Shown here: piece after piece, positions 4,314 through 47,142 of the stretch
How positions within the stretch are numbered: position 1 is the stretch's first letter
How the letters are laid out: every line of letters begins with the position of its first letter
NCBI GenBank assembly: GCA_050010135.1
Contig: JBEKLP010000001.1
Location: forward strand, 15,289-79,288
From: Anaerolineales bacterium
GTDB taxonomy: Bacteria > Chloroflexota > Anaerolineae > Anaerolineales > RBG-16-64-43
Length of the DNA stretch: 64,000 bases
Direction: 5' to 3'
Program-made: the position numbers and the translations under genes
The notes under the pieces: model-generated
The model's database searches: none
What the model was told of the DNA's origin: nothing
What the model saw: the letters and a program-made list of their open reading frames with translations, nothing else

Positions 4314-5555
4314 TTAGATTAATCTTTTCTGTTCATCATTCGCCGGCATGGCATCCGCCCCGTTCATCAGTCCGTATCTTCTCGCCCCGGCTTCCAACAC
4401 CGATTGGATCAACCGGTTGTAACTCCAACCCTCTGCCAGCGCGCAAAGCGTCAAATCGCTGATCGGTGTTAATCCCGGCAGGGAGTTGATCTCCAGGATG
4501 TATGGTTTGAGATTTTCGCCCGTGTGCAGGCGGAAATCCACGCGCGCAAAATCCAGCGATTGGGTTACGCGGAAGGTTTCGACGGCCAGCCGCGCCAAAT
4601 CCGTCGCAATCGATTCCGGCAATGGAGCCGGGCAGAGATAGGGATAGGCCTCCAACGGAAGTTCCTTGACTTTGCGGGAGTAAAACGGGTCCATATCCGG
4701 GATCCGGCTGTAATCCACTTCCGATATGGGGAAAACGTGAATACCGTTCCAATCCATCCCCCCGCCCGGAGTCCGGTCAACGGGGAGCGGATCGGGCACG
4801 GCTTGGCCGGCTTCCAACGCCGTGAGATTCCCCACCAGCCCGCAAGTAACGTCCCGCCCCGGAATGTATTCTTCCACCAGGGCCGACTCACTGTATTCCT
4901 TTAATATATATTCCACGCGCTCGCGCAATTGAGCTTCGGAACGGACCATTGACCCGGTGTCGATCCCCATGCCGGTCCCCTCGCGGTTGGGCTTTACGAA
5001 CAGCGGGAAACGCAGTTCCGGTGAGAGTGCAAGACCGGCGTGGGTGAATTCCTGGAAGCGCGGCGTGGGCAAGCCCGAAGCAATGAGGATGCGTTTGGTG
5101 GCGACCTTGTCGAGCGTGTTGGCCAGGCAGGTCACCTTGCCGCCGGTATAGGGGATTCCGATCATTTCCAGCACCGCGGGCACCTGCGCTTCGCGGCCGT
5201 CTCCGCGATATCCTTCGCAGGTGTTAAAGCAGATGTCCACTTTCAGCCGTTTGAGATGGCGGAAGAGATCCGGATTTCCGTCCAGCCCAATGACGTGATG
5301 GCCGGCGGCGCGCAGGGCTGCGGCATATGCGGCCACGTTGGTTTCGCTGTCGAGTTCAGCCAGCGCATCCGCCGGACGCGGACCATTCTGCGGCGCGTGC
5401 TTTCTCAGATTATGCAGGACGACCACGCGCAATCCGTGCCTGGCGCGCGGGCTTTTCTTTTGCGGCGAAACGGCCTCGACCGGCGTTGCGTTCTCCGGCT
5501 GGGCCAGCACTTCGAAGGCGTACTGCGCAGGATCTTCTTTTATCGAGGGGGACAT
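4314..5555 (-). CDS. ATP-grasp ligase, D-Ala-D-Ala-ligase-like
   Basis: 413 aa with LFVKPNREGTGMGI and DFARVDFRLHTGENLKPYILEINSLPGL, both ATP-grasp hallmarks. Confidence 0.75.
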   Translation of the reverse strand: MSPSIKEDPAQYAFEVLAQPENATPVEAVSPQKKSPRARHGLRVVVLHNLRKHAPQNGPRPADALAELDSETNVAAYAAALRAAGHHVIGLDGNPDLFRHLKRLKVDICFNTCEGYRGDGREAQVPAVLEMIGIPYTGGKVTCLANTLDKVATKRILIASGLPTPRFQEFTHAGLALSPELRFPLFVKPNREGTGMGIDTGSMVRSEAQLRERVEYILKEYSESALVEEYIPGRDVTCGLVGNLTALEAGQAVPDPLPVDRTPGGGMDWNGIHVFPISEVDYSRIPDMDPFYSRKVKELPLEAYPYLCPAPLPESIATDLARLAVETFRVTQSLDFARVDFRLHTGENLKPYILEINSLPGLTPISDLTLCALAEGWSYNRLIQSVLEAGARRYGLMNGADAMPANDEQKRLI

Positions 5556-5594: not shown

Positions 5595-6989
5595 TTAGGG
5601 TTTGCCGGATGTTTTTTTCCGTAGAACCGGGGGAACAGGCGTCGCCCCAACGGCTGGGGATTTTTCGGCGCCGATCCCGCGCGGCTGCCACTTCTCTTCG
5701 TCGCGGTTGAGGCGGTGCTTGGATCCGCCGCGCGCATGGAGCGCTTCCCAGCCGACCGGCTCGATCGCCAGCTGTTCCCCCTCGAGCAACCCGCTGACGC
5801 CGGACTGGCCCGGTTCCGTCCATTTGTCGCGGCAATAGGGGCACGCGGCCGGATCGTGGGCCGTGTAATCCACAGGCTCCTCGTAGACGGAGATGTATCC
5901 TTCGTAATTCCGCAGCGCCGTGCGGTGGTCGGACATGCTCAGCAGATAGTTCGGTCCGAGCGGGATCTTCCCGCCTCCGCCAGGCGCATCGACGACGTAT
6001 TGGGGAACGGCGAAGCCGGAAGTGTGGCCGCGCAGTCCCTCAATGATTTCGATTCCCTTGGCGACCGGCGTGCGAAAGTGTCCCGCGCCTTCCACCAGAT
6101 CGCACTGGTAGAGGTAGTACGGCCGTACGCGGATGCGCAGCAAATCCTGCACCAGCCGGCGCTGGATATGCACGCAGTCATTGACGCCCGCCAGCAGGAC
6201 CGACTGGTTGCCCAGCGGGATTCCCGCGCGGGAAAGCCGATCGGCGGCCGCGGCCAGCTCGGTCGTGATTTCGTTGGGATGGTTGACGTGGATGTTGAGC
6301 CACAGCGGATGGTAGCGGGCCAGCATCGAACACAACGCGTCGTCCACGCGCATCGGCAGGAACACCGGCACGCGCGATCCGATGCGGATGATCTCCACGT
6401 GTTCGATGGCACGCAGACGCGCGATCAGCTCTTCCAGCAATCCCGGCGCGAGGGTGAGCGGATCGCCGCCGGAAAGCAGCACGTCCCGGATTTGCGGTGT
6501 GCGCTGGATGTAGTCGAACATCGCGTCAAATTCGGCGCGCGAGAATTGGGCCGACGCATCGCCGACGATGCGCGAGCGGGTGCAGTAGCGGCAATAGGAT
6601 GCGCATTGCGTCGTGACCAGCATCAGCACGCGGTCCGGGTAGCGGTGCACCAAGCCCGGGACCGGGGAATGCCGGTCCTCCGCCAGGGAATCTTCCATCA
6701 TCGCCGTGAACGGGACGAGCTCCGCCGCGGTGGGGATCACCTGGCGGCGAATGGGATCCGCCGGGTCGTCGGGATGGATCAGGGAAATGAAATACGGGGT
6801 GACATCCACACGGAACAGATCGCTGGCATTCAGCGCCGTCCGTTCGCTCTCGGTCAGCGGGAAGATCCGCTCGATCTCCTCCGCCGTGTTCAACCGGTGG
6901 CTGAGCTGCCAGCGCCAATCGTTCCATTGCGCTTCGGGAACATCCCCGAAGGCGCGCGCGCGCCGGGTTTCAAAAACCCTGGGAGACAT
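5595..6989 (-). CDS. kamA: Lysine 2,3-aminomutase (radical SAM, KamA/AblA family)
   Basis: 464 aa with the CASYCRYCTRS radical-SAM cluster motif, LLSGGDPL, and collinear KamA-like sequence. It ends in a Lys/Pro-rich C-terminal tail. Confidence 0.85.
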   Translation of the reverse strand: MSPRVFETRRARAFGDVPEAQWNDWRWQLSHRLNTAEEIERIFPLTESERTALNASDLFRVDVTPYFISLIHPDDPADPIRRQVIPTAAELVPFTAMMEDSLAEDRHSPVPGLVHRYPDRVLMLVTTQCASYCRYCTRSRIVGDASAQFSRAEFDAMFDYIQRTPQIRDVLLSGGDPLTLAPGLLEELIARLRAIEHVEIIRIGSRVPVFLPMRVDDALCSMLARYHPLWLNIHVNHPNEITTELAAAADRLSRAGIPLGNQSVLLAGVNDCVHIQRRLVQDLLRIRVRPYYLYQCDLVEGAGHFRTPVAKGIEIIEGLRGHTSGFAVPQYVVDAPGGGGKIPLGPNYLLSMSDHRTALRNYEGYISVYEEPVDYTAHDPAACPYCRDKWTEPGQSGVSGLLEGEQLAIEPVGWEALHARGGSKHRLNRDEEKWQPRGIGAEKSPAVGATPVPPVLRKKTSGKP

Positions 6990-31506: not shown

Positions 31507-32997
<1,491 letters not shown>

Positions 32998-37940: not shown

Positions 37941-38933
37941 TCAATCGTTCGGTTTTAAAGGAATCGCCTTCGCTCCGAGTCCCGGCCGCGCCCGCAGGAT
38001 TTGGCGTACGGCGGGGAGTTCCCGCAAACGCCGTTCCACCTCTTCGGCGGATTCCGCCAAACACAGGCAGTGCACATTGGGTCCGGCGTCGACCGTGTAT
38101 GCCACGGGCAAACCGCCCACCCGCCATTCCGGAATGAGCCGCATCAATTCCAAAGACTCCGGTTCCCAATACGTCAGGGACGGCCGGGAGGTCATCATCA
38201 CTGCGTGCATCAGGCGGGTGTCTTCTTCGACGATCTCCGCAAGGGCGGTGAAATCTTTTTCCACAATTGCCCGGCGGCAAAGGTCCAGTCGCCGCGGGGC
38301 GTCGGCCACGCGCGCCGCCTGCAACGGGCTGGTCCTCGCCAGGACGTTCCCCTCCGCAGAACCGACTTTCTTGGGGCCGGCGTTTACGATCGCGATCAGA
38401 TCGATCAACGGCCAATGGGAGGGTGGAGCGATGGACACGGCGAACGAATCTTCGTCCCGGTTTGCCACAGACCATTCGACAAATCCCGCCGGCACCGAAC
38501 GGCCGGCGGATCCGGAACCGCGCCGGGCCAGGATCGAGAGCTCCCGCTCAGTAAGTTCCAACCCCAGCGCGGCGGCCGCGGCGACGGTCAGCGCCGCGAA
38601 GGCCGAGGCCGAGGAGGCGATTCCTGCACCGATGGGAAAATTATTTTCGCTGACGATTCGGGCTTTCCAAGCTACTCCGGCCATATTTCGAAGCAGATTA
38701 AGGTGGTCCGAGACACGCTCGGCGGTCGTTCCGGTTTGCACAACGCCCTGCAGCGTAAACTCATCCTTCCCTCGCTGCGGGTCGAACTCCGCCGAAGTGT
38801 GCGTTTCCAATCCGTCCAAATTCATCGAGATCGAACCATTGGCCGGAAGGCGCAATGCGTCGTCCCGGTTCCCCCAATATTTGATGAAGGCGATGTTAGC
38901 ACAAGCGACCGCCGTTGCGCACCGAGTTTGCAT
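37941..38933 (-). CDS. mvaD: Mevalonate (di)phosphate decarboxylase (GHMP kinase fold)
   Basis: NIAFIKYWGNRD, NNFPIGAGIASSASAFAAL (GHMP motif) and a TVDAGPNVH C-terminal motif. Confidence 0.85.
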   Translation of the reverse strand: MQTRCATAVACANIAFIKYWGNRDDALRLPANGSISMNLDGLETHTSAEFDPQRGKDEFTLQGVVQTGTTAERVSDHLNLLRNMAGVAWKARIVSENNFPIGAGIASSASAFAALTVAAAAALGLELTERELSILARRGSGSAGRSVPAGFVEWSVANRDEDSFAVSIAPPSHWPLIDLIAIVNAGPKKVGSAEGNVLARTSPLQAARVADAPRRLDLCRRAIVEKDFTALAEIVEEDTRLMHAVMMTSRPSLTYWEPESLELMRLIPEWRVGGLPVAYTVDAGPNVHCLCLAESAEEVERRLRELPAVRQILRARPGLGAKAIPLKPND

Positions 38934-40546
38934 TTTATATACGCTACCTTTTCCTGGTCTTCCAGCGCCAACTTGCAGCGCAGGTCCAATAGGTCCATGT
39001 ACCGCCGCTTATCTTCGAAGGTCGCGTTATCCAACCCGCTTCGGACTTCCGAACAAAACGATTCTATCACTTCAATATTCTCATCGGGAAGGCCTACAGG
39101 AATCAGATAAGAGGATAATTCCGTTTGCTCTCGGATCATTTCCGCAAGTTCCCTTTCCAGCTCGGCCTTTCGATCGTTTAGCACCTCTTTGGGAAAATTG
39201 TCTTCAAGGTACAGGTCTAATAATTTCTCAAGCTGGTTCCGGGTTTTGGATATACGGATCTCCAGCAATGATTCTCGTTCTCGGATTACATTGTTTGCGG
39301 CTTCCATTTCAGCCTGCTTTCCGCGTAATCCCTGAGCCAGCTGGTCGGGGTGCAGCAGCAGGCTTCTTAACCATTCCCAAACTGCAGTTTCCAGCCTCTT
39401 TGCCTGGAATAAGGGCATATCGCATAAAGACACCGGCCTTTGACTTCTGCCGTGACAAAAATAATATTGATTCTTACCACTCCGAGTTCGTCCCTGGTAT
39501 GTGTACCCGCATTTTGCGCATCGTAATCTTCGGCCTAATAGATATTCATTTTTAGAACTTCTCTTGCTTTGCTCGAAATTTATCAGACGCCGGTCTTTAG
39601 CCTTGTCAAAGATATCATTACCAATAATTGCGGGAACCTCAACCGGAACCCATTCGGCTCGTGGTCGTTGAACCTGCTTTCCAAGACCTCGCTTCATTCC
39701 GGTTAGCCGCTTCTTTTTGTTCCCATCCATAACCATAACTGTCTTTCCATAGTGCCAGACTCCGGTATAAGTTTCATTCATTAATATATGTCTCACCATA
39801 GCAGCAGTCCATATTCCAAAACCTCTTTTCTTGGCAACATGTTTGACCTTATCGCCGCGGGTTGGTATACGCATTTTCGTCAGCCAAAGTGCGATTTTTT
39901 GAATAGAAAAAGGAACGGTCCTTCCTTCACCGTTCACATACCAATGGAATACCATACGTACAATCTCAGCTTCTTTTTCATCGATTACGAGCCAGGATTT
40001 ATGCGGTTCACTTCGAACGATATAGCCATACGGAGGTCTGGAACCACATAAGACATGGCCCGATTGAGCTTTTCCCCGTTTTCCCCTCTTACTCCGTTCC
40101 ATAATTTTTGCTTTTTCGTATTCCGCCACGCTGGCCTGGATTTGTTTCTGCAACCGCCCCTCTTCCGTATCAGCGTACTGTCCCATCACATATTCCACGC
40201 GGATACCGGCTTTTTCGAACTCCTCGTCGATTAGTAGTTGATAAACGCATTTACGCGCTAAGCGATCCACGCAATATACAATCACTATAGCAACCGGATG
40301 AGAAGCTACAAATTCACGGAGAATATTTAGACCGGGCCGGTCGATGCTCTCACCGGTATAGTCATCTGTAAACTCCTTAAGAACGCAATATCCTCGATCC
40401 GCAGCATATTTTATACACGCCTCGATTTGAGTCGGAATACTGTAACCTCGGCTCTGTTCATCTGTGGAGACTCGTGCATAAATAACAGCCGATTTAATAC
40501 GGGTATCGGAAGTTTGCAGTACATCTTTCTGGGCATCATCTATCAT
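38822..40546 (-). CDS. Large serine recombinase (resolvase catalytic domain + recombinase domain + zinc ribbon + coiled coil)
   Basis: AVIYARVSTDEQSRGYSIPTQ catalytic Ser motif, a CAKCGYTY...YYFCHGR zinc ribbon and a coiled-coil C-terminus. The last ~37 codons lie in GC-rich host DNA overlapping mvaD in another frame. Confidence 0.9.
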   Translation of the reverse strand: MIDDAQKDVLQTSDTRIKSAVIYARVSTDEQSRGYSIPTQIEACIKYAADRGYCVLKEFTDDYTGESIDRPGLNILREFVASHPVAIVIVYCVDRLARKCVYQLLIDEEFEKAGIRVEYVMGQYADTEEGRLQKQIQASVAEYEKAKIMERSKRGKRGKAQSGHVLCGSRPPYGYIVRSEPHKSWLVIDEKEAEIVRMVFHWYVNGEGRTVPFSIQKIALWLTKMRIPTRGDKVKHVAKKRGFGIWTAAMVRHILMNETYTGVWHYGKTVMVMDGNKKKRLTGMKRGLGKQVQRPRAEWVPVEVPAIIGNDIFDKAKDRRLINFEQSKRSSKNEYLLGRRLRCAKCGYTYQGRTRSGKNQYYFCHGRSQRPVSLCDMPLFQAKRLETAVWEWLRSLLLHPDQLAQGLRGKQAEMEAANNVIRERESLLEIRISKTRNQLEKLLDLYLEDNFPKEVLNDRKAELERELAEMIREQTELSSYLIPVGLPDENIEVIESFCSEVRSGLDNATFEDKRRYMDLLDLRCKLALEDQEKVAYIKCKLGAQRRSLVLTSPSSNIGGTGTTHCAFRPMVRSR

Positions 40547-40562
40547 CTAGCAACCTACCTCC

Positions 40563-40702
40563 AAAACAAAGCGGATCGCTTGCCATAAGTGCGACCAAGC
40601 GACCCGCTCCCGCGATCGGGCCAGCTTGCCGCCTGTTCGGCCTGCTGGACCGTCCATTCGGGTGTTCGTAGCAACCGAAAGAACGGCGATTATTCAATTA
40701 CT
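40563..40702 (-). ncRNA. Candidate structured leader/sRNA, copy A, ending in an intrinsic terminator just before the recombinase RBS
   Basis: Starts downstream of a TTGACA-N17-CATAAT promoter. Has a hairpin with a CUACGAA loop and a second hairpin presenting GAACAGG. A 12-bp terminator stem (GCGGGUCGCUUG / CAAGCGAUCCGC) plus UUUGUUUU lies at 40563-40607. Homologous to 45728-45875. Confidence 0.5.
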
Positions 40703-40708
40703 GGTAAT

Positions 40709-40737
40709 ATTATGTTACCTATTATTCCTTTTGTCAA
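40709..40737 (-). promoter_or_regulatory. Sigma70-like promoter with an imperfect palindrome over the -10
   Basis: Minus strand reads TTGACA (overlapping the HTH gene's TGA stop) - 17 nt - CATAAT. GGTAACAT/ATATTACC is an imperfect inverted repeat across the -10. Confidence 0.55.
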
Positions 40738-40940
40738 GCGCGCGGACCCCTGCGTGTATCGTTTGATTTTTCAGCAGCCTGCAGGTAAGCCTTCAGGCTG
40801 GAAATGCTGATCATCCAGTCCCGGACCCACTTTTGGGACTTGATCTTCTTTTGCCGGACAAGGCGCCTGATATATTGGGCGCTATAACCAGTCAATTCGG
40901 ATGCCTCGTTTACGGTTATCCAGTCTTCGGCCATGGGCAA
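40734..40940 (-). CDS. HTH_17 (excisionase/MerR-like) DNA-binding protein
   Basis: 68 aa. WITVNEASELTGYSAQYIRRLVRQKKI...RDWMISISSLKAYL is the typical excisionase-family HTH. Paralog of 45469..45684. Confidence 0.75.
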   Translation of the reverse strand: MPMAEDWITVNEASELTGYSAQYIRRLVRQKKIKSQKWVRDWMISISSLKAYLQAAEKSNDTRRGPRA

Positions 40941-40970
40941 GCCCTCGAGGCCGATTCTAGACCAAAACTG

Positions 40971-41249
40971 TCAAGATGCAATCGGTTTTTTTCCCCCATT
41001 TTCGATCAGGTCGCTTTCTTGCCTCCTGTCGGCCGGCTGGCTCTGGTTTTCGTCGCATTTGACTGCCTGATTTCGTGCGATCGCTAGACGATAGCATTGA
41101 GCAAGAATCACTGCGATCTCCTGATTTTCCTCAGGTTGAAAAAGCTCTGTCTCTTTATTCATTTCGGCTGTTTCCGATGGATTCTCGGATATCCATTTCC
41201 CGTCCGGGCTCAACTGGCACGGGATTTGCATGCTTTCCCTTAGGGTCAA
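40971..41249 (-). CDS. Hypothetical protein (92 aa)
   Basis: ORF co-directional with, and 30 nt upstream of, the HTH gene. No recognisable motif. Confidence 0.35.
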   Translation of the reverse strand: MTLRESMQIPCQLSPDGKWISENPSETAEMNKETELFQPEENQEIAVILAQCYRLAIARNQAVKCDENQSQPADRRQESDLIENGGKKPIAS

Positions 41250-41472
41250 TTATCGATTCCTTCGCTTCATCTTGAAGGGCGTCCCTTCTCGATGGTAATA
41301 CCCAGATAAGGATGAACTTGATTTTTCTTTCCTTGTCGACGGACTGCTTCTTCAAATTTTGTTGCCTCTCTCGAAATAGGCTCCTTCGGGAATCTTATTG
41401 ACCTCCAAAATATCACCATCTCTCCACCTCGAACCATCGAATTTCCACGAATGGAGGGGAATAATTGTGAAA

Positions 41473-44400
41473 ATGGAATCCATCAATAAAAAAGCCGGAT
41501 TGTCACAATTGCGAAGAAAGGTAAAAGCAATCGCTTTACTCAGCGATTCCAGCTATCTGGAAATTTGCGATGAAATTGGTGAAATATTAGGAAAATCTGG
41601 CGATATTATTCAGGATTGGCTGCAAGACTCAAGCAGTCATAAATTTAGCGCTTCAGAAATAAATAAATTTGTTAATTATTCAATGTCTCATTTACTGGAT
41701 TTGGATCGTAAATGGGCTGAATACATTTTTTCCTGTTTTTGTTTTTCATTTTCTTTATTTTCTCGGGATGTCTTTGAATTATGCAATCAGCGAGACGCAA
41801 TAAAATCGTTTATCTCCGTCCCCCGACATGCCAAAACCAGAATCCCGTTTTTTATAGAGCAGTTCTTATCGGGAATTCGCAATAATGCCCAGCAGTATGC
41901 AAATAACCAATTCAATCATCACGGCAAATCCGGTTTCTTTATTCATCACCGGCTTGAGTTAAATGCTGTAAATCGGAACAATAACGAAAAGAAAAATGTT
42001 CCGACTAGCATCCGGGCTGATGACCTATTGTTTACGGAAGGGGTATTTGCTATCGTCGGATCGCCAGGGAGCGGGAAGACAACTCTTTTTTGGCATTTAT
42101 GCGCGATATTGGCCAATAAGGACAGGCATGGACTCATTCCAATACCTATTGACTTGGAGGGTATTCCCCCATCGGTTGATGAGGTGGAGTTTTTGACTTT
42201 GGCTATTCGCCAAAACGTCCGGGATGTTCTGGCCCACGAAATCCAAATTTTTGCCAGGTATCTCGATAAATGTCTACGTGAAGGCACGGCAGTTCTCCTT
42301 GCGGATAATTGGTCTTCTGAATTCAAGGGCTTGCCGAATACGTTCAAGGGCTGGAAACGAATCCTGTTTTTTAGCAAATATGTACCCTTTCATCCGGACA
42401 ATCGGATCGTTTTCTACAAGCTTCCGGAATTGTCCGATTCGGATATCCGCCTCTTTATAAAAAGCTGGCTATTTTCATCGCGTCAATATGCGGATTCGGA
42501 ACTGCTCTTTTCCAATATATCCTCATCCCGCGAAGTAAATTCCTTGGCCCGGATTCCATTGTTTCTCAATCTGATATGCGCTTCTTTTTACACCAATTCC
42601 CGGTTTCTGATCGGCCGTTGGCAGCTAATCGATGCTTCCCTGGAGATTTTTCTTGGTAAGCATGGCTTGTCTGATCAAGAGGTCTTCGCGTATAGAAGAT
42701 TTCTTTCACGTCTGGCTCTTTCCGGATATTCGAAAAGAGATCCCAATACAGGGATAAGGCGGCAATTTACATATGCGGATATTGAAATGTTTTTATGGCC
42801 GACTGACAGGCATCAAATTGACCTCACTCCGAAGAAAATCGTCGAGCACGGTTTTCTGCGTCCCATCCATGGCGGCGCACTTTTTTCATTTCCCCATTCG
42901 GAAATTCAAGCGGCATTGGCCGCCGAAGCCCTGCTAAATGATCCTTTCTGGGATGCATGGATACCTTTTTACAAGGATATCCCGGCTTGGGGCGATGTCA
43001 TCGTATACGCAGTTGCTCAACTCGGGGCTCTAGGCGATTTAGAGAGATTGGTAAAGTTATTGGGATTAATTGAAAATTTCCAGGATAAGATCATCCCTGA
43101 ATGCCACTTACTCCTATTGTGCCGGTGTTTTGCTGAATTGGAAGAGTCGATTCGAAACAAACTCGAACGACGAGATATTGGAAGGACTTTTATAACCAGG
43201 ATAATGTCTTTTTTACATTCCCGATCGTCCACGTTTTTTTATGAAATATTCGATTTACTACCCCGGCTCATGACAACTGATTTGGAAACCGAATTGATAC
43301 GATTTTTCTCTCATTGGAATTGTAACGACCTTTCCAGATGTATGATTGTGCGAATTTTAGGTTATTCAAAGAGCTCCTTGGCGGTAAAGAGTCTCGGCGA
43401 ATTCGCTTTATATGAAAAGGAAGATCACGGCTTGCGAGCAGAAGCAATTCTAGCATTGGGAAAAACCCGCCATGCAGAGGCGATCCCCATCCTTAATCTC
43501 CTACTCCAAGACCAAAGCGTTTTCTCTTATGTCGTCACCGCATTAGTCAACCATAACTCGGTTGAATCCATGAGGTCATTGCTCTCCACAGAAAAAACGC
43601 TTTATTGGGATCCTTCGGCAATGTCTCTTTTCAACCCCGAGATCTTGTCTGTTCTGGAAGGAGCATTATGCGCCGGGGAGCAGCATCTTCTTTTTATTTT
43701 ACAGGCAATATCTTCTATCGGCACGGATGATTCGGTCCTTCTTCTTGAACGATTCCTATACAAGAAAGATACTTTTTCGCTTGCGGCGCGTTTGCTAAGG
43801 AACATAACACTCCCCGAAGCTAATGAAGTATTATTACGTTTTGCGGAAGACTACCGAACCTCCCGATACGACCGATTCACTGCGTTGGAAAACATCCCCT
43901 GCGATATCATCCCAGCAGATTCCCGACGGCTCCTTAACCTTCTGTTTCCAACAGATACCCCTGCCTTTTCGTGCGGCGCAATTGAAGCATTACGCAAAAA
44001 CAGCGATATCAATCTGCCCGATCTATTAATCGCTGAAATTGTGGAATCCTCCGAGCAAAAGAGAAGCACCCTATTGTCAATCATGATTTCCCAGAATCGT
44101 CCGGAGTACATCCCGGTTTATCGGCGGCTTTTCCAGGATCCCGACCCGTTCATCCGTTCCAAGGCAATATACGGGCTGGCAAAGACGGATAAATCCCTGG
44201 ACCCGGCCGTCGTCACTGACGAACTTCGATTCGCCCTGGAGAATAACCTCATTCCCGATTACCTTTGTCAAGCCGCCGGCGAATTACGAATAAAGGAATC
44301 CGTCCCCTTGTTGGCGAAATTATTCTTGCGTCGTTCCTGGGATGGGAATTGTTGCGAATTATCTGCGTTGCAGGACATCGGAGGGCCCGAATCGGCGAAG

Positions 44401-45285
44401 GTTTTACTCTCTGCAAAACACCTTTGGTGGAGCGGCGAGGATAGCATCTTCTATAATTCTGATTTAATTTTTCAAACCCTTGGTGAATTAGGTGAGCCGA
44501 TAGGCCTGCAAACGATTCTGGATTGCGGGAATAGTCAGTGCGCAATTAATAAAGAATTTTCCACCGGGATAATAAATACTTTAATGAGGGTCCATAATCC
44601 ATTCGCTGCTCCATTTCTGCTTGAGGCATTGGGCCATCCCAACCCCGAAGTCAGGCATAATTCCATCATTTCGCTTGCCCAAATGGGATATGAAAAAGCG
44701 ATCCCCAAAATCATCGCGCTCTTATCCGACGAGGTCGATTACGTGCGGGATATGGCCTACACCGCCATAACCCGCACGTATAAATCCTTTGAGAATCCGG
44801 ACGCTGTCGCCGCGCTGGAGGAATTGTTTCAATCCGCCGATGACCGGCTTTGGTACGCGGCCCTTATTGGATTAGGAAATGCTCGGCGCGACTTGATTCA
44901 CTTTTACACATTAGAGAGGATGCGTCAAATCATCAAGACCGAACCGCAAGATTTTCTGTTCCGGGAAACATTAGGCACATACGCAGAAAGCGGGGACAAT
45001 CATACTTTCCAATACATATGGGACATGCGAAGCAATGTTGGAAAATGTGTTGGTCTATCGATGGATTTTCAGAGAAGAGAAAGAGATCTATTCATGAGTC
45101 TGGGCCGGATCAGATTCCTACCCTTCCTTATTAACAAACTCCCAGAAACCCGTCCTTTATTGAAGAAAATATGCGAAGAATGTAACATCCGGGTGCTGGA
45201 GAACGGAACCGTCGTATTGCCGGAAGGCCAGGAGCTTTCCGCGGACAATGCCGTAAAATTCCTGTGGCATTATTCAAAGCAGTAG
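41473..45285 (+). CDS. STAND NTPase: HTH-like N-terminus + NACHT-type P-loop + long HEAT/PBS-lyase-type repeat array
   Basis: Walker A FAIVGSPGSGKTTLF and Walker B AVLLADNW. C-terminal HEAT units: DPFIRSKAIYGLAK, NPEVRHNSIISLAQMG, DYVRDMAYTAI. A GTG at 41467 (after GGAGGGG) is an alternative start. Confidence 0.8.
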   Translation: MESINKKAGLSQLRRKVKAIALLSDSSYLEICDEIGEILGKSGDIIQDWLQDSSSHKFSASEINKFVNYSMSHLLDLDRKWAEYIFSCFCFSFSLFSRDVFELCNQRDAIKSFISVPRHAKTRIPFFIEQFLSGIRNNAQQYANNQFNHHGKSGFFIHHRLELNAVNRNNNEKKNVPTSIRADDLLFTEGVFAIVGSPGSGKTTLFWHLCAILANKDRHGLIPIPIDLEGIPPSVDEVEFLTLAIRQNVRDVLAHEIQIFARYLDKCLREGTAVLLADNWSSEFKGLPNTFKGWKRILFFSKYVPFHPDNRIVFYKLPELSDSDIRLFIKSWLFSSRQYADSELLFSNISSSREVNSLARIPLFLNLICASFYTNSRFLIGRWQLIDASLEIFLGKHGLSDQEVFAYRRFLSRLALSGYSKRDPNTGIRRQFTYADIEMFLWPTDRHQIDLTPKKIVEHGFLRPIHGGALFSFPHSEIQAALAAEALLNDPFWDAWIPFYKDIPAWGDVIVYAVAQLGALGDLERLVKLLGLIENFQDKIIPECHLLLLCRCFAELEESIRNKLERRDIGRTFITRIMSFLHSRSSTFFYEIFDLLPRLMTTDLETELIRFFSHWNCNDLSRCMIVRILGYSKSSLAVKSLGEFALYEKEDHGLRAEAILALGKTRHAEAIPILNLLLQDQSVFSYVVTALVNHNSVESMRSLLSTEKTLYWDPSAMSLFNPEILSVLEGALCAGEQHLLFILQAISSIGTDDSVLLLERFLYKKDTFSLAARLLRNITLPEANEVLLRFAEDYRTSRYDRFTALENIPCDIIPADSRRLLNLLFPTDTPAFSCGAIEALRKNSDINLPDLLIAEIVESSEQKRSTLLSIMISQNRPEYIPVYRRLFQDPDPFIRSKAIYGLAKTDKSLDPAVVTDELRFALENNLIPDYLCQAAGELRIKESVPLLAKLFLRRSWDGNCCELSALQDIGGPESAKVLLSAKHLWWSGEDSIFYNSDLIFQTLGELGEPIGLQTILDCGNSQCAINKEFSTGIINTLMRVHNPFAAPFLLEALGHPNPEVRHNSIISLAQMGYEKAIPKIIALLSDEVDYVRDMAYTAITRTYKSFENPDAVAALEELFQSADDRLWYAALIGLGNARRDLIHFYTLERMRQIIKTEPQDFLFRETLGTYAESGDNHTFQYIWDMRSNVGKCVGLSMDFQRRERDLFMSLGRIRFLPFLINKLPETRPLLKKICEECNIRVLENGTVVLPEGQELSADNAVKFLWHYSKQ

Positions 45286-45372
45286 AATTGAATTCCTAAA
45301 CTATTTCCCCCCAATATATCGCAGTCACCGCGTTTATAAACAATACTTTTCCCGAATCGGTAGAATTTTGAC

Positions 45373-45395
45373 AATTCTCCCAATCTGGGAGAATT
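45373..45395. promoter_or_regulatory. Perfect 10-3-10 palindrome upstream of the second HTH_17 gene
   Basis: AATTCTCCCA-atc-TGGGAGAATT immediately after a TTGACA hexamer. A TTGGCT-N17-TATAGT promoter candidate follows closer to the ATG. Confidence 0.45.
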
Positions 45396-45468
45396 CTTAT
45401 ATTTGACAAAATTTCCATAAGCCCACCCGTTTGGCTAGTTCGGACCCTTAAGTTATAGTATTGCCAAG

Positions 45469-45684
45469 ATGGCTAAAAGGGTCGATCCTCAGGAATTGAT
45501 TACCATAACCGAAGCTGCTCGTCGCTTTGGATTAAGCCCTCAATATCTTCGTGATATTGCCCGGTCCGGCCGGCTAAGGGCCCGAAAAATGGGCCGCGAT
45601 TGGCTTACTACCCCCGCCGATGTGGAAATATATATTCAAAGCCGGCGGAAGAAAGGTGCTTTTCGCGAGGATCTGAAAAGATAA
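45469..45684 (+). CDS. HTH_17 (excisionase/MerR-like) DNA-binding protein
   Basis: 71 aa. LITITEAARRFGLSPQYLRDIARSGRLRARKMGRDWLTTPADVEIYI is collinear with the 40734..40940 product. Confidence 0.75.
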   Translation: MAKRVDPQELITITEAARRFGLSPQYLRDIARSGRLRARKMGRDWLTTPADVEIYIQSRRKKGAFREDLKR

Positions 45685-45692
45685 TCTCCCCC

Positions 45693-45721
45693 TTGACTAT
45701 ACAGCGTATACGCTGTATATT
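45693..45721 (+). promoter_or_regulatory. Sigma70-like promoter whose spacer is a perfect 22-bp palindrome (operator)
   Basis: TTGACT - 17 nt - TATATT. TATACAGCGTATACGCTGTATA (45698-45719) is its own reverse complement. Confidence 0.6.
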
Positions 45722-45727
45722 ATTTTA

Positions 45728-45875
45728 ATAATGGAATAGGCAAAGTAACGCCGTCCGCGGGTGCTACGAACACCAACGGACGGCTAACCCACAGAACTGA
45801 ACAGGCAGTCGTGCGGGCTGGTGTTTATTATAACGGCCGCTTCTGCCTTACGGTGGAAATGGCCGTTTTTCTTTG
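45728..45875 (+). ncRNA. Candidate structured leader/sRNA, copy B, ending in a terminator-like hairpin plus T-tract
   Basis: CGCCGTCCG...GGTG-CTACGAA-CACC...CGGACGGC nested hairpin, a GAACAGG-presenting second hairpin, then AACGGCC...GGCCGTTTTTCTTT. The core is homologous to copy A on the opposite strand. Confidence 0.5.
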
Positions 45876-45914: not shown

Positions 45915-46106
45915 ATGACTCGAGGTAAAAACTTGGTTTGTCCAAGAATCACAGTAACTCACTCATCAAAACCGAAATTTTCTTCGCAGGATGAATTATG
46001 GTCTGTCGCCGGGCCAATTTTGGCCAGAATTATGACCCAGGTGCTTGTTCGGGAAATACCCATCCGAAACAATCATATAAAGAACGATTCATCTAACAAT
46101 TCCTAA
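45915..46106 (+). CDS. Small hypothetical ORF (63 aa)
   Basis: ATG preceded by AAGGGAG. First ORF after leader B. No motif; weak support. Confidence 0.3.
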   Translation: MTRGKNLVCPRITVTHSSKPKFSSQDELWSVAGPILARIMTQVLVREIPIRNNHIKNDSSNNS

Positions 46107-46121
46107 TTTCCGGGAGGAGCA

Positions 46122-46613
46122 ATGACAAGTACTTCAAAGAACGATCCCAATGAATTTGATTATCTCAGATTGTTTGGTTTGAAAGGCATAACCTCGATCA
46201 ACGAATTACTACTCGCCGATTCAAAAGGGCTAAAGTCATCTCATGTTTCAACTTTCTGCAGAATAACAGGTCTTTCAATGGATGATATTGCCACAATAAT
46301 GGGGATTTCTCGTAAACAAGCGGATAACAAAATGCGAACAGGTGTATTTTCAGCCAAGGAGGCGGATATTTTGCTTAGTGTTGCACGTATTATCTGCGAA
46401 TTTTTCCGTGTTTATCCTGATAACCAAGATTTTTGGATGCTTTTCCTTCCAGACTCTGAAGAAACCAATGATATGCAATCTCTATATCTCTCCAAGACCG
46501 AGAACGGAAAAGGAAAAGCCCTTCTTCAAATACATATTGAGCGCGAAGATTATCTTAGAGTATTTTCTACTGATATTTCAACTCATAAGAAGGTCAATTC
46601 TAGTAAAGGTTGA
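46122..46613 (+). CDS. Xre-like HTH + DUF2384 (MbcA/ParS-type antitoxin-like) protein, copy 1
   Basis: 163 aa. ITGLSMDDIATIMGISRKQ (HTH) then SAKEADILLSVARIICEFFRVY...FWMLF...LYLSKTENGKGKALLQI, the pattern of the toxin-binding DUF2384 domain. Confidence 0.7.
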   Translation: MTSTSKNDPNEFDYLRLFGLKGITSINELLLADSKGLKSSHVSTFCRITGLSMDDIATIMGISRKQADNKMRTGVFSAKEADILLSVARIICEFFRVYPDNQDFWMLFLPDSEETNDMQSLYLSKTENGKGKALLQIHIEREDYLRVFSTDISTHKKVNSSKG

Positions 46614-46650
46614 TCTTTTTTCCGACAATTCTTAATTTCCAGGAGGAGCA

Positions 46651-47142
46651 ATGACAAGCGCTTCAAAGGCCGTTACTCATGAATTCGAATATCTCAAATT
46701 ATTTGGCGTGAAAGCCAGGAACTCCAAAAATGAATTACTAATCGCCGAAGTAAAAGGATTAAAGTCTACTCACATCTCGACCTTTCGCCGAATAACCGGT
46801 TTAACAGTAGATCATATTGCCATCCTATTGGATATTTCTCGAAGACAAATTAATTACAAGATGCGAAAGGGGATTTTTTCAGCCAAGGATGCGGATATTT
46901 TGCTCAATGTTGCCAAGATAATTTACGAATTCTTCTGCTTATATCCTGATATCCAAGATTTTTGGCTTCTCTTCCTTGCCGGCCGAGACGAATTTAGCGG
47001 AAAGTCAGCCTTGTATCTCTCAAAAACCGAGATTGGAAGGGGACGCGTTCTTGCACAAATTATTAAGGAACGTGATGATTATTTACAGGATATTTCAAAG
47101 GATAGTAAAACTCCTAAGAACGTCAAAGTTAAAAAGGAGTGA
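46651..47142 (+). CDS. Xre-like HTH + DUF2384 (MbcA/ParS-type antitoxin-like) protein, copy 2
   Basis: Also 163 aa and collinear with copy 1. The RBS region is duplicated too (aatttccRggaggagcaATGacaag); the repeat period is 529 bp. Confidence 0.7.
   Translation: MTSASKAVTHEFEYLKLFGVKARNSKNELLIAEVKGLKSTHISTFRRITGLTVDHIAILLDISRRQINYKMRKGIFSAKDADILLNVAKIIYEFFCLYPDIQDFWLLFLAGRDEFSGKSALYLSKTEIGRGRVLAQIIKERDDYLQDISKDSKTPKNVKVKKE

Follow-up and report, generated by a model that had tools for sequence, protein, structure and literature searches.

Plasmid pIP501 pairs the attenuation of repR by RNAIII with a small repressor, CopR. Transcription attenuation driven by an antisense RNA, in which pairing is initiated by kissing loops, has been described for pT181, pIP501 and pAMbeta1 (PMC2879508). 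In Shigella flexneri, the cis-antisense RNA RnaG kisses the leader hairpins of icsA and turns an antiterminator into a terminator (PMC2879508), and in the pCF10 conjugation system of Enterococcus faecalis the prgQ operon is under the control of both a promoter repressor, PrgX, and a cis-antisense RNA, Anti-Q, that promotes termination in the leader (PMC3181467). Here we analysed a stretch of 64,000 nucleotides from an Anaerolineales bacterium (contig JBEKLP010000001.1; the whole stretch is called the window), which carries two inverted modules, A on the minus strand and B on the plus strand. Each of them consists of an excisionase-like HTH_17 gene, a sigma70-type promoter with a palindrome, a structured non-coding stretch of ~140 nt and an intrinsic terminator, just as a first reading made from the letters of the DNA (the sequence-only reading) had described. 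The non-coding stretches belong to an undescribed and widespread family of leader RNAs that lies between excisionase-like and integrase genes in mobile elements of Chloroflexota. We are highly confident that this conserved, cis-regulatory structured leader is real. As the best explanation, we take each module for a regulatory cassette within an integrative mobile element, and we consider it probable that transcription in the cassette is attenuated by a countertranscript, as in pT181, pIP501 and pCF10, and that the antisense RNA of module B (antisense-B) acts on the leader of module A as well.

A family of structured leader RNAs

Both non-coding stretches (140-150 nt) fold into a hairpin P1 with the loop CUACGAA, a hairpin P2 with the loop AACAGG and an intrinsic terminator. 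The z-scores of the folds were -3.9 and -5.6, and none of 200 shuffled sequences was equally stable; the terminator scan flagged both terminators, in agreement with the hairpins and terminators first proposed. Leader A (minus strand) comprises P1 at 40650..40688 (loop at 40665-40671; the 13 nt UGCUACGAACACC are identical with copy B), P2 at 40621..40648 (with GAACAGGC identical with copy B), a small hairpin CCCGAUCGCGGG at 40609-40620 and the terminator at 40571-40607, followed by the U-tract UUUGUUUU at 40563-40570. Leader B (plus strand) comprises P1 at 45749-45784 (loop at 45764-45770), P2 at 45788-45817, a further hairpin, P3, at 45816-45838, which contains AUUAUA and whose 3′ arm overlaps the 5′ arm of the terminator, and the terminator itself at 45832-45867, with the U-tract UUUUCUUUG at 45867-45875. 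No ATTATA/TATAAT box was found in leader A. Since each leader ends in an intrinsic terminator upstream of the regulated open reading frame (ORF), the attenuator-type function suggested by the sequence-only reading is reasonable. The shared core GCTACGAACAC occurs exactly twice in the 64-kb window, and four times when one mismatch is allowed, against 0.55 matches expected. The compensatory changes claimed between the two copies are also there, although the example given for them had set the outer P2 stem of A (CCAGC/GCTGG) against the inner stem of B (ACTG/CAGT): the homologous inner stems are GCCG/CGGC in A and ACUG/CAGU in B, and the homologous outer stems CCAGC/GCUGG in A and CCC.CA/UG.GGG in B.

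The sense promoter of each leader lies directly 3′ of the HTH_17 gene, and a promoter scan put these two near-consensus sites at the top of the region. Promoter A (40703..40737, minus strand) has the -35 box TTGACA at 40732-40737 and the -10 box CATAAT at 40709-40714, separated by a spacer of 17 (11 of 12 matches), and promoter B (45693..45721, plus strand) reads TTGACT-17-TATATT (10 of 12 matches). Both are overlapped by the predicted palindromes, which are putative operators: in A, GGTAA-CATAATA-TTACC at 40703-40719, over the -10 box; in B, the perfect 22-bp palindrome TATACAGCGTATACGCTGTATA at 45698-45719. Related loci carry TATAAT and a locus-specific palindrome at the corresponding promoter position. 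The HTH_17 genes, at 40734..40940 on the minus strand (where the start is probably the ATG at 40934) and at 45469..45684 on the plus strand, are paralogous, their products being 31% identical (E 1e-12). Both match Pfam HTH_17 (PF12728) above the curated cut-off of 27, with 41.7 bits (E 1.4e-10) for A and 38.1 bits (E 1.9e-9) for B, and they fall into PHROG excisionase families (A) and excisionase/RDF families (B). A second promoter-like site is located at 45368-45405, between HTH_17 gene B and the STAND gene that separates the modules; it shows TTGACA followed by the 23-bp palindrome AATTCTCCCAATCTGGGAGAATT (45373-45395) and is probably the regulated promoter of HTH_17 gene B itself.

The large serine recombinase encoded behind leader A has 465 homologues, mostly from Anaerolineales. 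Forty-four genome loci of recombinase homologues, gathered by protein alignment, were searched with a covariance model (R1) built from five copies of the RNA, the two of the window and three from other loci. One strong match was found in 38 of the 44 loci (E 1e-10 to 1e-27), always on the recombinase strand and 0.4-1.6 kb upstream of the gene, and three of the six negative loci have no sequence upstream of the recombinase. A second match, in L004, was weak and judged not to be a copy. In the window, the model matched leader A at 40605-40694 (E 1e-13) and leader B at 45740-45838 (E 2e-26). A motif scan with a pattern derived from the alignment yielded at least 120 further metagenome loci; because the pattern contains ATTATA, GGGCTR and ACCC..CCACCG, the conservation of these motifs counts only in the 36 protein-anchored copies. 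Among the metagenome matches listed, 97 of 109 loci had an HTH_17-like gene no more than 400 nt upstream of the RNA, and a large serine recombinase was encoded downstream on the same strand in 65 of 71; 56 of these 65 recombinases are less than 40% identical to that of the window. The recombinases that accompany the RNA show an identity of only 21-55%. The exceptions downstream include a tyrosine integrase in L080 and an FtsK/SpoIIIE gene in L088. Co-occurrence of homologous RNAs with HTH_17 genes and serine recombinases, which the sequence-only reading had proposed to look for, was thus found in nearly all loci. With an HTH_17 gene upstream and an integrase downstream across loci, the conserved unit is therefore made up of the excisionase-like gene, the RNA and the integrase.

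The RNA had not been recognised as a member of any named family, and the comparison with Rfam 15 was accordingly negative: in the window and 10 related loci there was no match at the gathering threshold, barring one tRNA elsewhere, and at E values up to 10 only chance-level matches appeared, plasmid ctRNA families included. The annotated phage and plasmid collections contained no match to the family either; a motif match in a viral contig (L001), lying within a coding region of an AT-rich phage, was set aside as chance. Our search of the literature returned nothing specific on RNA tied to serine recombinases or on attenuation of integrases. Among the hosts that carry the element is the cultured Ornatilinea apprima P3M-1, with the leader at 4478-4576 of locus L036 (NZ_LGCL01000003.1). 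A GC-rich contig, L121 (69-74% GC in the matches), has two tandem, divergent copies at 5886-5984 and 6345-6443 of the minus strand, 460 nt apart and with different loops, which suggests that the RNA family extends past Anaerolineae. At L037 (~5750-5790), a run of ~40 A residues stands in place of the sequence upstream of the -10 box of the leader, probably as an assembly artefact. Between leader and recombinase, many loci contain ORFs of 79-92 aa that start with M..QPP and contain R.EWQ (e.g. L006 5691-5930 and L017 5679-5957). This family has no Pfam or PHROG match, and its product could be an accessory or directionality factor. In the clade of L009 (2063-5997), the corresponding interval holds a 280-aa membrane protein with a C-terminal winged HTH, and upstream of it L009 encodes an 827-aa DUF3854 protein.

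A typical member of the family has a sense promoter with TATAAT (-35 box with at least four of six matches in 54 of 114 copies), and a locus-specific palindrome comes after it. The lower stem of P1 covaries, its upper stem, (R)GUG/CAC(Y), is conserved, and its loop measures 6-7 nt. The 5′ strand of P2 is CCCAACCCACCG; ATTATA, within the palindromic P3, comes 5-7 nt after GGGCUG. The terminator, P4, is formed by a stem of 10-12 bp, CGCCCUGGUGG-GAUU-CCAUCGGGGCG, ahead of the U-tract, and shows G·U pairs on the sense strand together with compensatory changes. Next come a hairpin P5 with the loop GCCGGG, a repeat ACGCCC and the ribosome binding site (RBS) of the following ORF. The P5 loop and the pre-RBS repeat are conserved (alignment A7, columns 170-228; e.g. 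L113 ~1040-1084), and the repeat copies the 5′ arm of the terminator and could base-pair with the 3′ arm. Loop and repeat may serve to control how the first ORF is translated.

RNAalifold applied to the raw MAFFT alignment gave only parts of P1, P2 and P4; the helices were set by hand from L006 and then tested by counting pairs in 116 distinct sequences, which are phylogenetically related, so that the counts are not independent events. Standard pairs occupied 86.8% of the cells as compared with 77.0% in shuffles, and cells with a double change numbered 426 as compared with 152±9. None of 500 shuffles matched the observed covariation, slid controls were 39-48% paired, and compensatory changes were present in 9 of the 12 P1 pairs. 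Covariation thus supports the hairpins P1, P2, P4 and P5. The sequence-only reading had allowed that homologues with compensatory changes might be lacking, or that the likeness of the two copies might be the remnant of a duplicated att site. Neither is the case, nor is the likeness due to chance: the covariation lies above all the shuffles, the RNA is internal to the element, and its orientation to promoter and genes is fixed.

Strand asymmetry and a proposed antisense RNA

Where the sense strand has a C·A cell, the opposite strand forms a U·G wobble. On the sense strand, C·A cells outnumbered G·U cells in P1 (153:51) and in P2 (90:3), that is, 243:54 in the two hairpins together, and the bias was the opposite in the terminator half (26:210 in P4 and 26:154 in P5). 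Folding energies pointed the same way. The P1-P2 segment was steadier as antisense in 114 of the 116 sequences (-39.8 vs -30.6 kcal/mol), and the P4-P5 segment was steadier as sense in 111; when the hairpins were taken singly, antisense was preferred by P1 in 104 and by P2 in 115 sequences, P3 was neutral, and sense was preferred by P4 in 108 and by P5 in 84. The preference flips at P3 with its ATTATA box, which reads TATAAT on the opposite strand. It appears from these statistics that selection on the P1/P2 hairpins acts mainly through the opposite strand. The sequence-only reading had left a choice between a leader and a small RNA (sRNA): the conserved structured leader stands, and the sRNA is recast, most likely, as a cis-encoded antisense RNA that has the leader as its target.

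The motif played no part in the choice of the 36 protein-anchored copies, and 31 of them have a perfect ATTATA. Four carry ATTCTA or ATTTTA, corresponding to TAGAAT or TAAAAT on the opposite strand, so that TAnnnT (A2, T6) is retained, and the sole copy without a box is window copy A. The position of the box is fixed at 5-7 nt from the base of P2, and TGn precedes it in 41 of 117 copies. The palindrome P3 around it (A7 columns 80-110; window 45816-45838) covaries between clades, with neither strand favoured by folding energy, and might serve as a DNA operator across the antisense -10 box instead of forming an RNA hairpin. In copy B, the proposed antisense unit spans 45738..45832 of the minus strand, with the -10 box TATAAT at 45832..45827, a putative start at ~45820 and an end at ~45738, and its proposed target is the P1-P2 region of leader B (45749..45817). 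Initiation ~7 nt from the box would place the 5′ end at the base of the reverse-complement P2 hairpin, and the RNA would stop past the reverse-complement P1 hairpin. The 83 nt of antisense-B fold into two clean hairpins, the reverse complements of P2 and P1, plus the tail GUUACUUUGCCU (-43.8 kcal/mol; z -6.45, vs -1.7 for the antisense of copy A), and the terminator scan flagged a terminator-like site on the minus strand at 45772..45752. In leaders of the A type the antisense preference is not consistent.

Sequence complementarity links CCCACCG in the 5′ strand of P2 (seg1) with the terminator's 5′ arm, CUGGUGGG (seg2, GGUGGG). Partition-function folding was carried out in silico on 114 leaders, either truncated just before the 3′ arm of the terminator (nascent) or complete. 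In the nascent leaders, the mean probability was 0.76 for the seg1:seg2 pairing and 0.03 for P2; in the complete leaders, it was 0.73 for the terminator and 0.05 for seg1:seg2. The predicted fold of the nascent window leader A likewise has P2 open and its GAACAGGCGGC region paired with the 5′ arm of the terminator. On these folding probabilities, the terminator arm is therefore predicted to be held in a preemptor helix until it is released by RNA pairing with P1-P2.

The mechanism that we propose is as follows. At the sense promoter, the palindrome is the probable binding site of the excisionase-like HTH_17 protein, and this promoter would drive the leader with P1, P2, P3 and the terminator P4, and then P5 in typical members. 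The opposite-strand TATAAT just 3′ of P2 would drive an antisense RNA of ~80-90 nt that consists of P2 and P1 in reverse complement. During synthesis of the leader, CCCACCG of P2 would pair with the 5′ arm of the terminator, the terminator would be hindered and the polymerase would read into the integrase operon. The antisense RNA would touch the loops of P1 and P2 first and then pair with P1-P2; once CCCACCG is sequestered in this way, the terminator would form and transcription would halt ahead of the integrase. Because one DNA segment encodes both partners, a change in a loop keeps them complementary, and elements could therefore diversify their specificity, which would explain the hypervariable loops.

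Several observations weigh against this mechanism. A search for an antisense -35 box was negative, the best match being 1-2 of six in most copies, and the U-tract behind the antisense P1 hairpin is moderate and absent in some clades (e.g. L017 type); the antisense RNA is a prediction from sequence statistics. The seg1:seg2 cells are 87% complementary, but their nucleotides are nearly invariant and show no covariation, so that covariation is neutral on the preemptor helix. Moreover, the equilibrium fold of the complete leader favours the terminator even without the antisense RNA, and read-through therefore rests on a kinetic argument.

The loops of P1 are of 40 different kinds among the 116 sequences. 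Identical loops were shared by 31% of the pairs with identical lower stems and by 2-3% of those whose stems are less than 70% identical. P2 loops are likewise variable, and inspection revealed no consistent complementarity that would allow the P1 and P2 loops of one RNA to kiss. In L006 (5530-5536; also L007, L008, L015, L038, L026 and L083), the P1 loop reads TTCGTAG, exactly CTACGAA of the window in reverse complement, and lies within the same GGTG/CACC stem. It may represent a small hairpin-loop inversion or a coincidence; if the antisense model is true, such a change would exchange the sense and antisense loops.

The closest relatives of the window, L166 and L167, whose recombinases are 74-75% identical to that of the window, have the same two-module layout round the HEAT/STAND gene, with an NTPase at the corresponding position in L167 and a shorter gene there in L166. 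Over 98 nt, window B and the B copies of both relatives do not differ (100% identity). The stems of the A copies of these relatives have strongly diverged, yet these copies keep GCUACGAACACC, the P1 loop of B, and CCG(A/G)ACAGGCGG, the P2 loop of B. None of the three A copies (window, L166, L167) contains ATTATA. Among the 116 leaders, the best non-self duplex partner of antisense-B is leader A (-91.7 vs -66.3±6.2 kcal/mol), which also has the sole exact run of 13 nt with antisense-B, at the P1 loop. The simplest reading of these sequences is that copy B makes the antisense RNA and that copy A is a target-only leader regulated in trans. With a putative antisense promoter only in B and the loops of B retained in A, antisense-B would therefore throttle both the recombinase operon and the operon of orf63 and the Xre-like genes behind leader B. 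Thus, the two copies probably couple these operons, as the co-regulation put forward by the sequence-only reading implied.

We also contemplated, as quite unlikely, that the P1/P2 loops constitute an RNA 'immunity code', by which the antisense RNA of one element would shut off the integrase operon of any incoming element whose loops are the same, along with additional target-only leaders through which cargo, for instance defence genes, is wired into this switch. In a more radical form of the same idea, the direction of recombination might also be determined by binding of the leader or the antisense RNA to the recombinase or to the EWQ-motif protein; this variant, if true, would provide the first RNA partner of a serine integrase.

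Other explanations of the leader

The main rival to countertranscript attenuation is a sense-only leader acting in cis, which we regard as unlikely but serious. P1-P3 would sense a protein (HTH_17, the product of the EWQ-motif ORF or the recombinase) or a small molecule and choose between the preemptor and P4; the antisense RNA would be absent, and AUUAUA would be a recognition motif in the sense RNA. The leader, the terminator and the alternative pairing are well supported and are shared by this explanation, which also accommodates the highly conserved nucleotides outside helices (RACGG, CUNACCC, GGGCU, AUUAUA, GGUGGGAUUC and GCCGGG) and the missing -35 box of the proposed antisense promoter. 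However, it leaves unexplained why P1/P2 are ~9 kcal/mol steadier on the other strand (114/116), why C·A mismatches mark P1/P2 and G·U pairs P4/P5, and why the loops are hypervariable and those of B are retained in the diverged A copies. In addition, the RNA is unmatched by the riboswitch and leader families of Rfam.

Processive antitermination of the HK022 put type appears highly unlikely to us. The hairpins would act in cis on the polymerase and carry it past P4 and later terminators into the integrase gene and, in the clade next to the diphosphomevalonate decarboxylase (MVD) gene, into the mevalonate operon. Two conserved hairpins directly 3′ of a strong promoter and followed by a terminator would suit such a system, as would the presence of two promoters in one element, each with its own copy; in ~40 species the recombinase gene extends into the MVD gene, and read-through may be needed there. 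The function of put, however, depends on a defined structure and sequence, whereas here the loops are hypervariable and selection on the hairpins seems to act through the opposite strand; the conserved preemptor complementarity would also be unexplained.

We give even less credence, and very little in all, to an RNA cofactor of the recombinase, guide- or bridge-like, whose variable loops would specify att sites or the direction of recombination. The sequence-only reading had raised this link as a speculation, and variable loops between conserved stems, together with the tight linkage to large serine recombinase genes, make it understandable; nevertheless, it is unsupported. In L080 the RNA stands before a tyrosine integrase and in L088 before an FtsK gene, and the recombinases accompanied share no more than 21-55% identity. 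Neither the loop CTACGAA nor its complement is found at the junction of the element with MVD, and the sole other exact match of the 7-mer in the window is ~6 kb off, at 32974. Elements at the same MVD site bear at least 10 different loops, and the P1/P2 loops behave as unconstrained or diversifying. Large serine recombinases recognise att sites by protein-DNA contacts.

Hardly credible, finally, is the idea that the P1, P2 and P3 palindromes are DNA sites (accessory, att-like or for inversion) bound by recombinase or HTH proteins, with the inverted copies flanking an invertible segment: inverted copies do stand round a 5-kb segment beside a recombinase gene, P3 lacks a strand preference and the L006 group has the window loop in reverse complement, but most loci have a single copy, the RNA element lies 0.4-1.6 kb inside the recombinase end and not at the junction, its orientation relative to the promoter is fixed, the segment has an equal orientation in the window, L166 and L167, and a palindrome should lack the bias of C·A vs G·T, which was 243:54 in P1+P2 and reversed in P4/P5. 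The att- or inversion-site idea, which had been prompted by the L006 loop, was rejected because the rest of the element keeps its orientation, there is mostly one copy, the copy is internal and the mismatch bias is RNA-like. Candidate element boundaries taken from blast breakpoints of near-identical loci were discarded as well: they differ between genomes and fall inside the conserved MVD gene, and are therefore not att sites.

Mobile-element context and relation to described systems

The genes around the modules follow the order first described, with the recombinase behind terminator A and orf63 and two Xre-like-HTH genes behind terminator B. The large serine recombinase gene (38822..40546, minus strand; RBS GGAGG at 40558-40562) begins 16 nt past the U-tract of leader A, and its product has the domains Resolvase (PF00239, E 1e-29), Recombinase (PF07508, E 3e-16) and Zn_ribbon_recom (PF13408, E 1e-11). 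On the plus strand, the operon 3′ of leader B (45915..47142) starts with orf63 (45915-46106) and continues with two paralogous 163-aa genes (46122-46613 and 46651-47142) that match Pfam Xre-like-HTH with E 1.2e-5 and 4e-3; homologues of the operon genes occupy the same position in L166 and L167. The gene between the modules (41398..45285, plus strand) encodes a STAND/HEAT-repeat NTPase of 1295 aa (HEAT_2, E 3e-32; weak nSTAND3/NACHT P-loop matches) and is cargo, outside the RNA switch. The cargo of L166 (1-5600) includes a MmeI-type methyltransferase/restriction gene, a Mrr-like nuclease and DUF6119, and that of L167 (1-4402) an OLD-family nuclease, SbcCD-like genes and a HEAT/STAND NTPase as in the window; RmuC follows in the window and L166. 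Thus, the cargo beside the modules looks defence-related.

The elements are integrative. With its 3′ end, the recombinase gene reaches ~100 nt into the start of the MVD gene (window 38822-38933), both in the window and in ~40 Anaerolineae species (loci L002-L045), with more mevalonate-pathway genes next to it; members of the window's clade are always placed in this way. From this arrangement, the 5′ end of the mevalonate operon looks like a conserved insertion site, and MVD expression may depend on read-through from the element.

To our knowledge, the mobile elements and the RNA regulation of Chloroflexota are almost unstudied, and a large uncatalogued family of structured RNA, with hundreds of copies, marks the xis-int junction of their integrative elements. 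The family provides a practical handle for annotating these elements and is testable in the cultured Ornatilinea apprima P3M-1. If the antisense model is true, the plasmid-style control of copy number or immunity by kissing-loop RNAs would also govern the integrases of chromosomal elements, and the loop sequences would be a fast-evolving specificity code. Large serine recombinases are genome-engineering tools, and a small RNA switch from nature that comes in many orthogonal loop variants would be useful as a regulatory part.

Compared with the described systems, the bridge RNA or seekRNA of IS110/IS1111 shares with the present family a structured non-coding RNA beside a recombinase gene and variable loops between conserved stems. 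Those RNAs, however, bind a DEDD-type recombinase and have loops complementary to target and donor DNA, whereas here the recombinase is of the serine type, the loops are unmatched at the junction and tyrosine integrase and FtsK genes are neighbours too. RnaG/icsA resembles the proposed mechanism in that attenuation by a kissing cis-antisense RNA operates outside plasmid replication, but it concerns a single virulence locus and not a family of mobile elements, and the sequences are unrelated. In pCF10, as proposed here, a mobile-element operon is under a promoter repressor and a terminating cis-antisense RNA; in contrast to pCF10, there is no sensing of a peptide pheromone here, the RNAs are unrelated and the genes serve integration and excision instead of conjugation. 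With the plasmid ctRNA families of Rfam, the leaders share neither sequence nor covariance-model similarity.

The likeness to pT181, pIP501 and pAMbeta1 covers several features: a sense promoter, a leader and an intrinsic terminator directly ahead of the regulated gene; a putative convergent promoter in the leader that would yield an antisense RNA of ~80-140 nt with at least two stem-loops; a preemptor, predicted here in silico, that competes with the terminator and sits inside the antisense target; and loops that would act as specificity determinants. With pIP501 in particular, the modules would share a small DNA-binding repressor at the sense promoter, a role that HTH_17 may fill. Of the systems compared, pIP501 (CopR with RNAIII) and pCF10 (PrgX with Anti-Q) come nearest. 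The modules differ from those plasmids in that the proposed antisense promoter has no -35 box, a second target copy without this promoter would be addressed in trans and the function is an inferred one, and in that the genes under control are not replication initiators but integrases, mostly large serine recombinases, and the cargo operons of Chloroflexota integrative elements.

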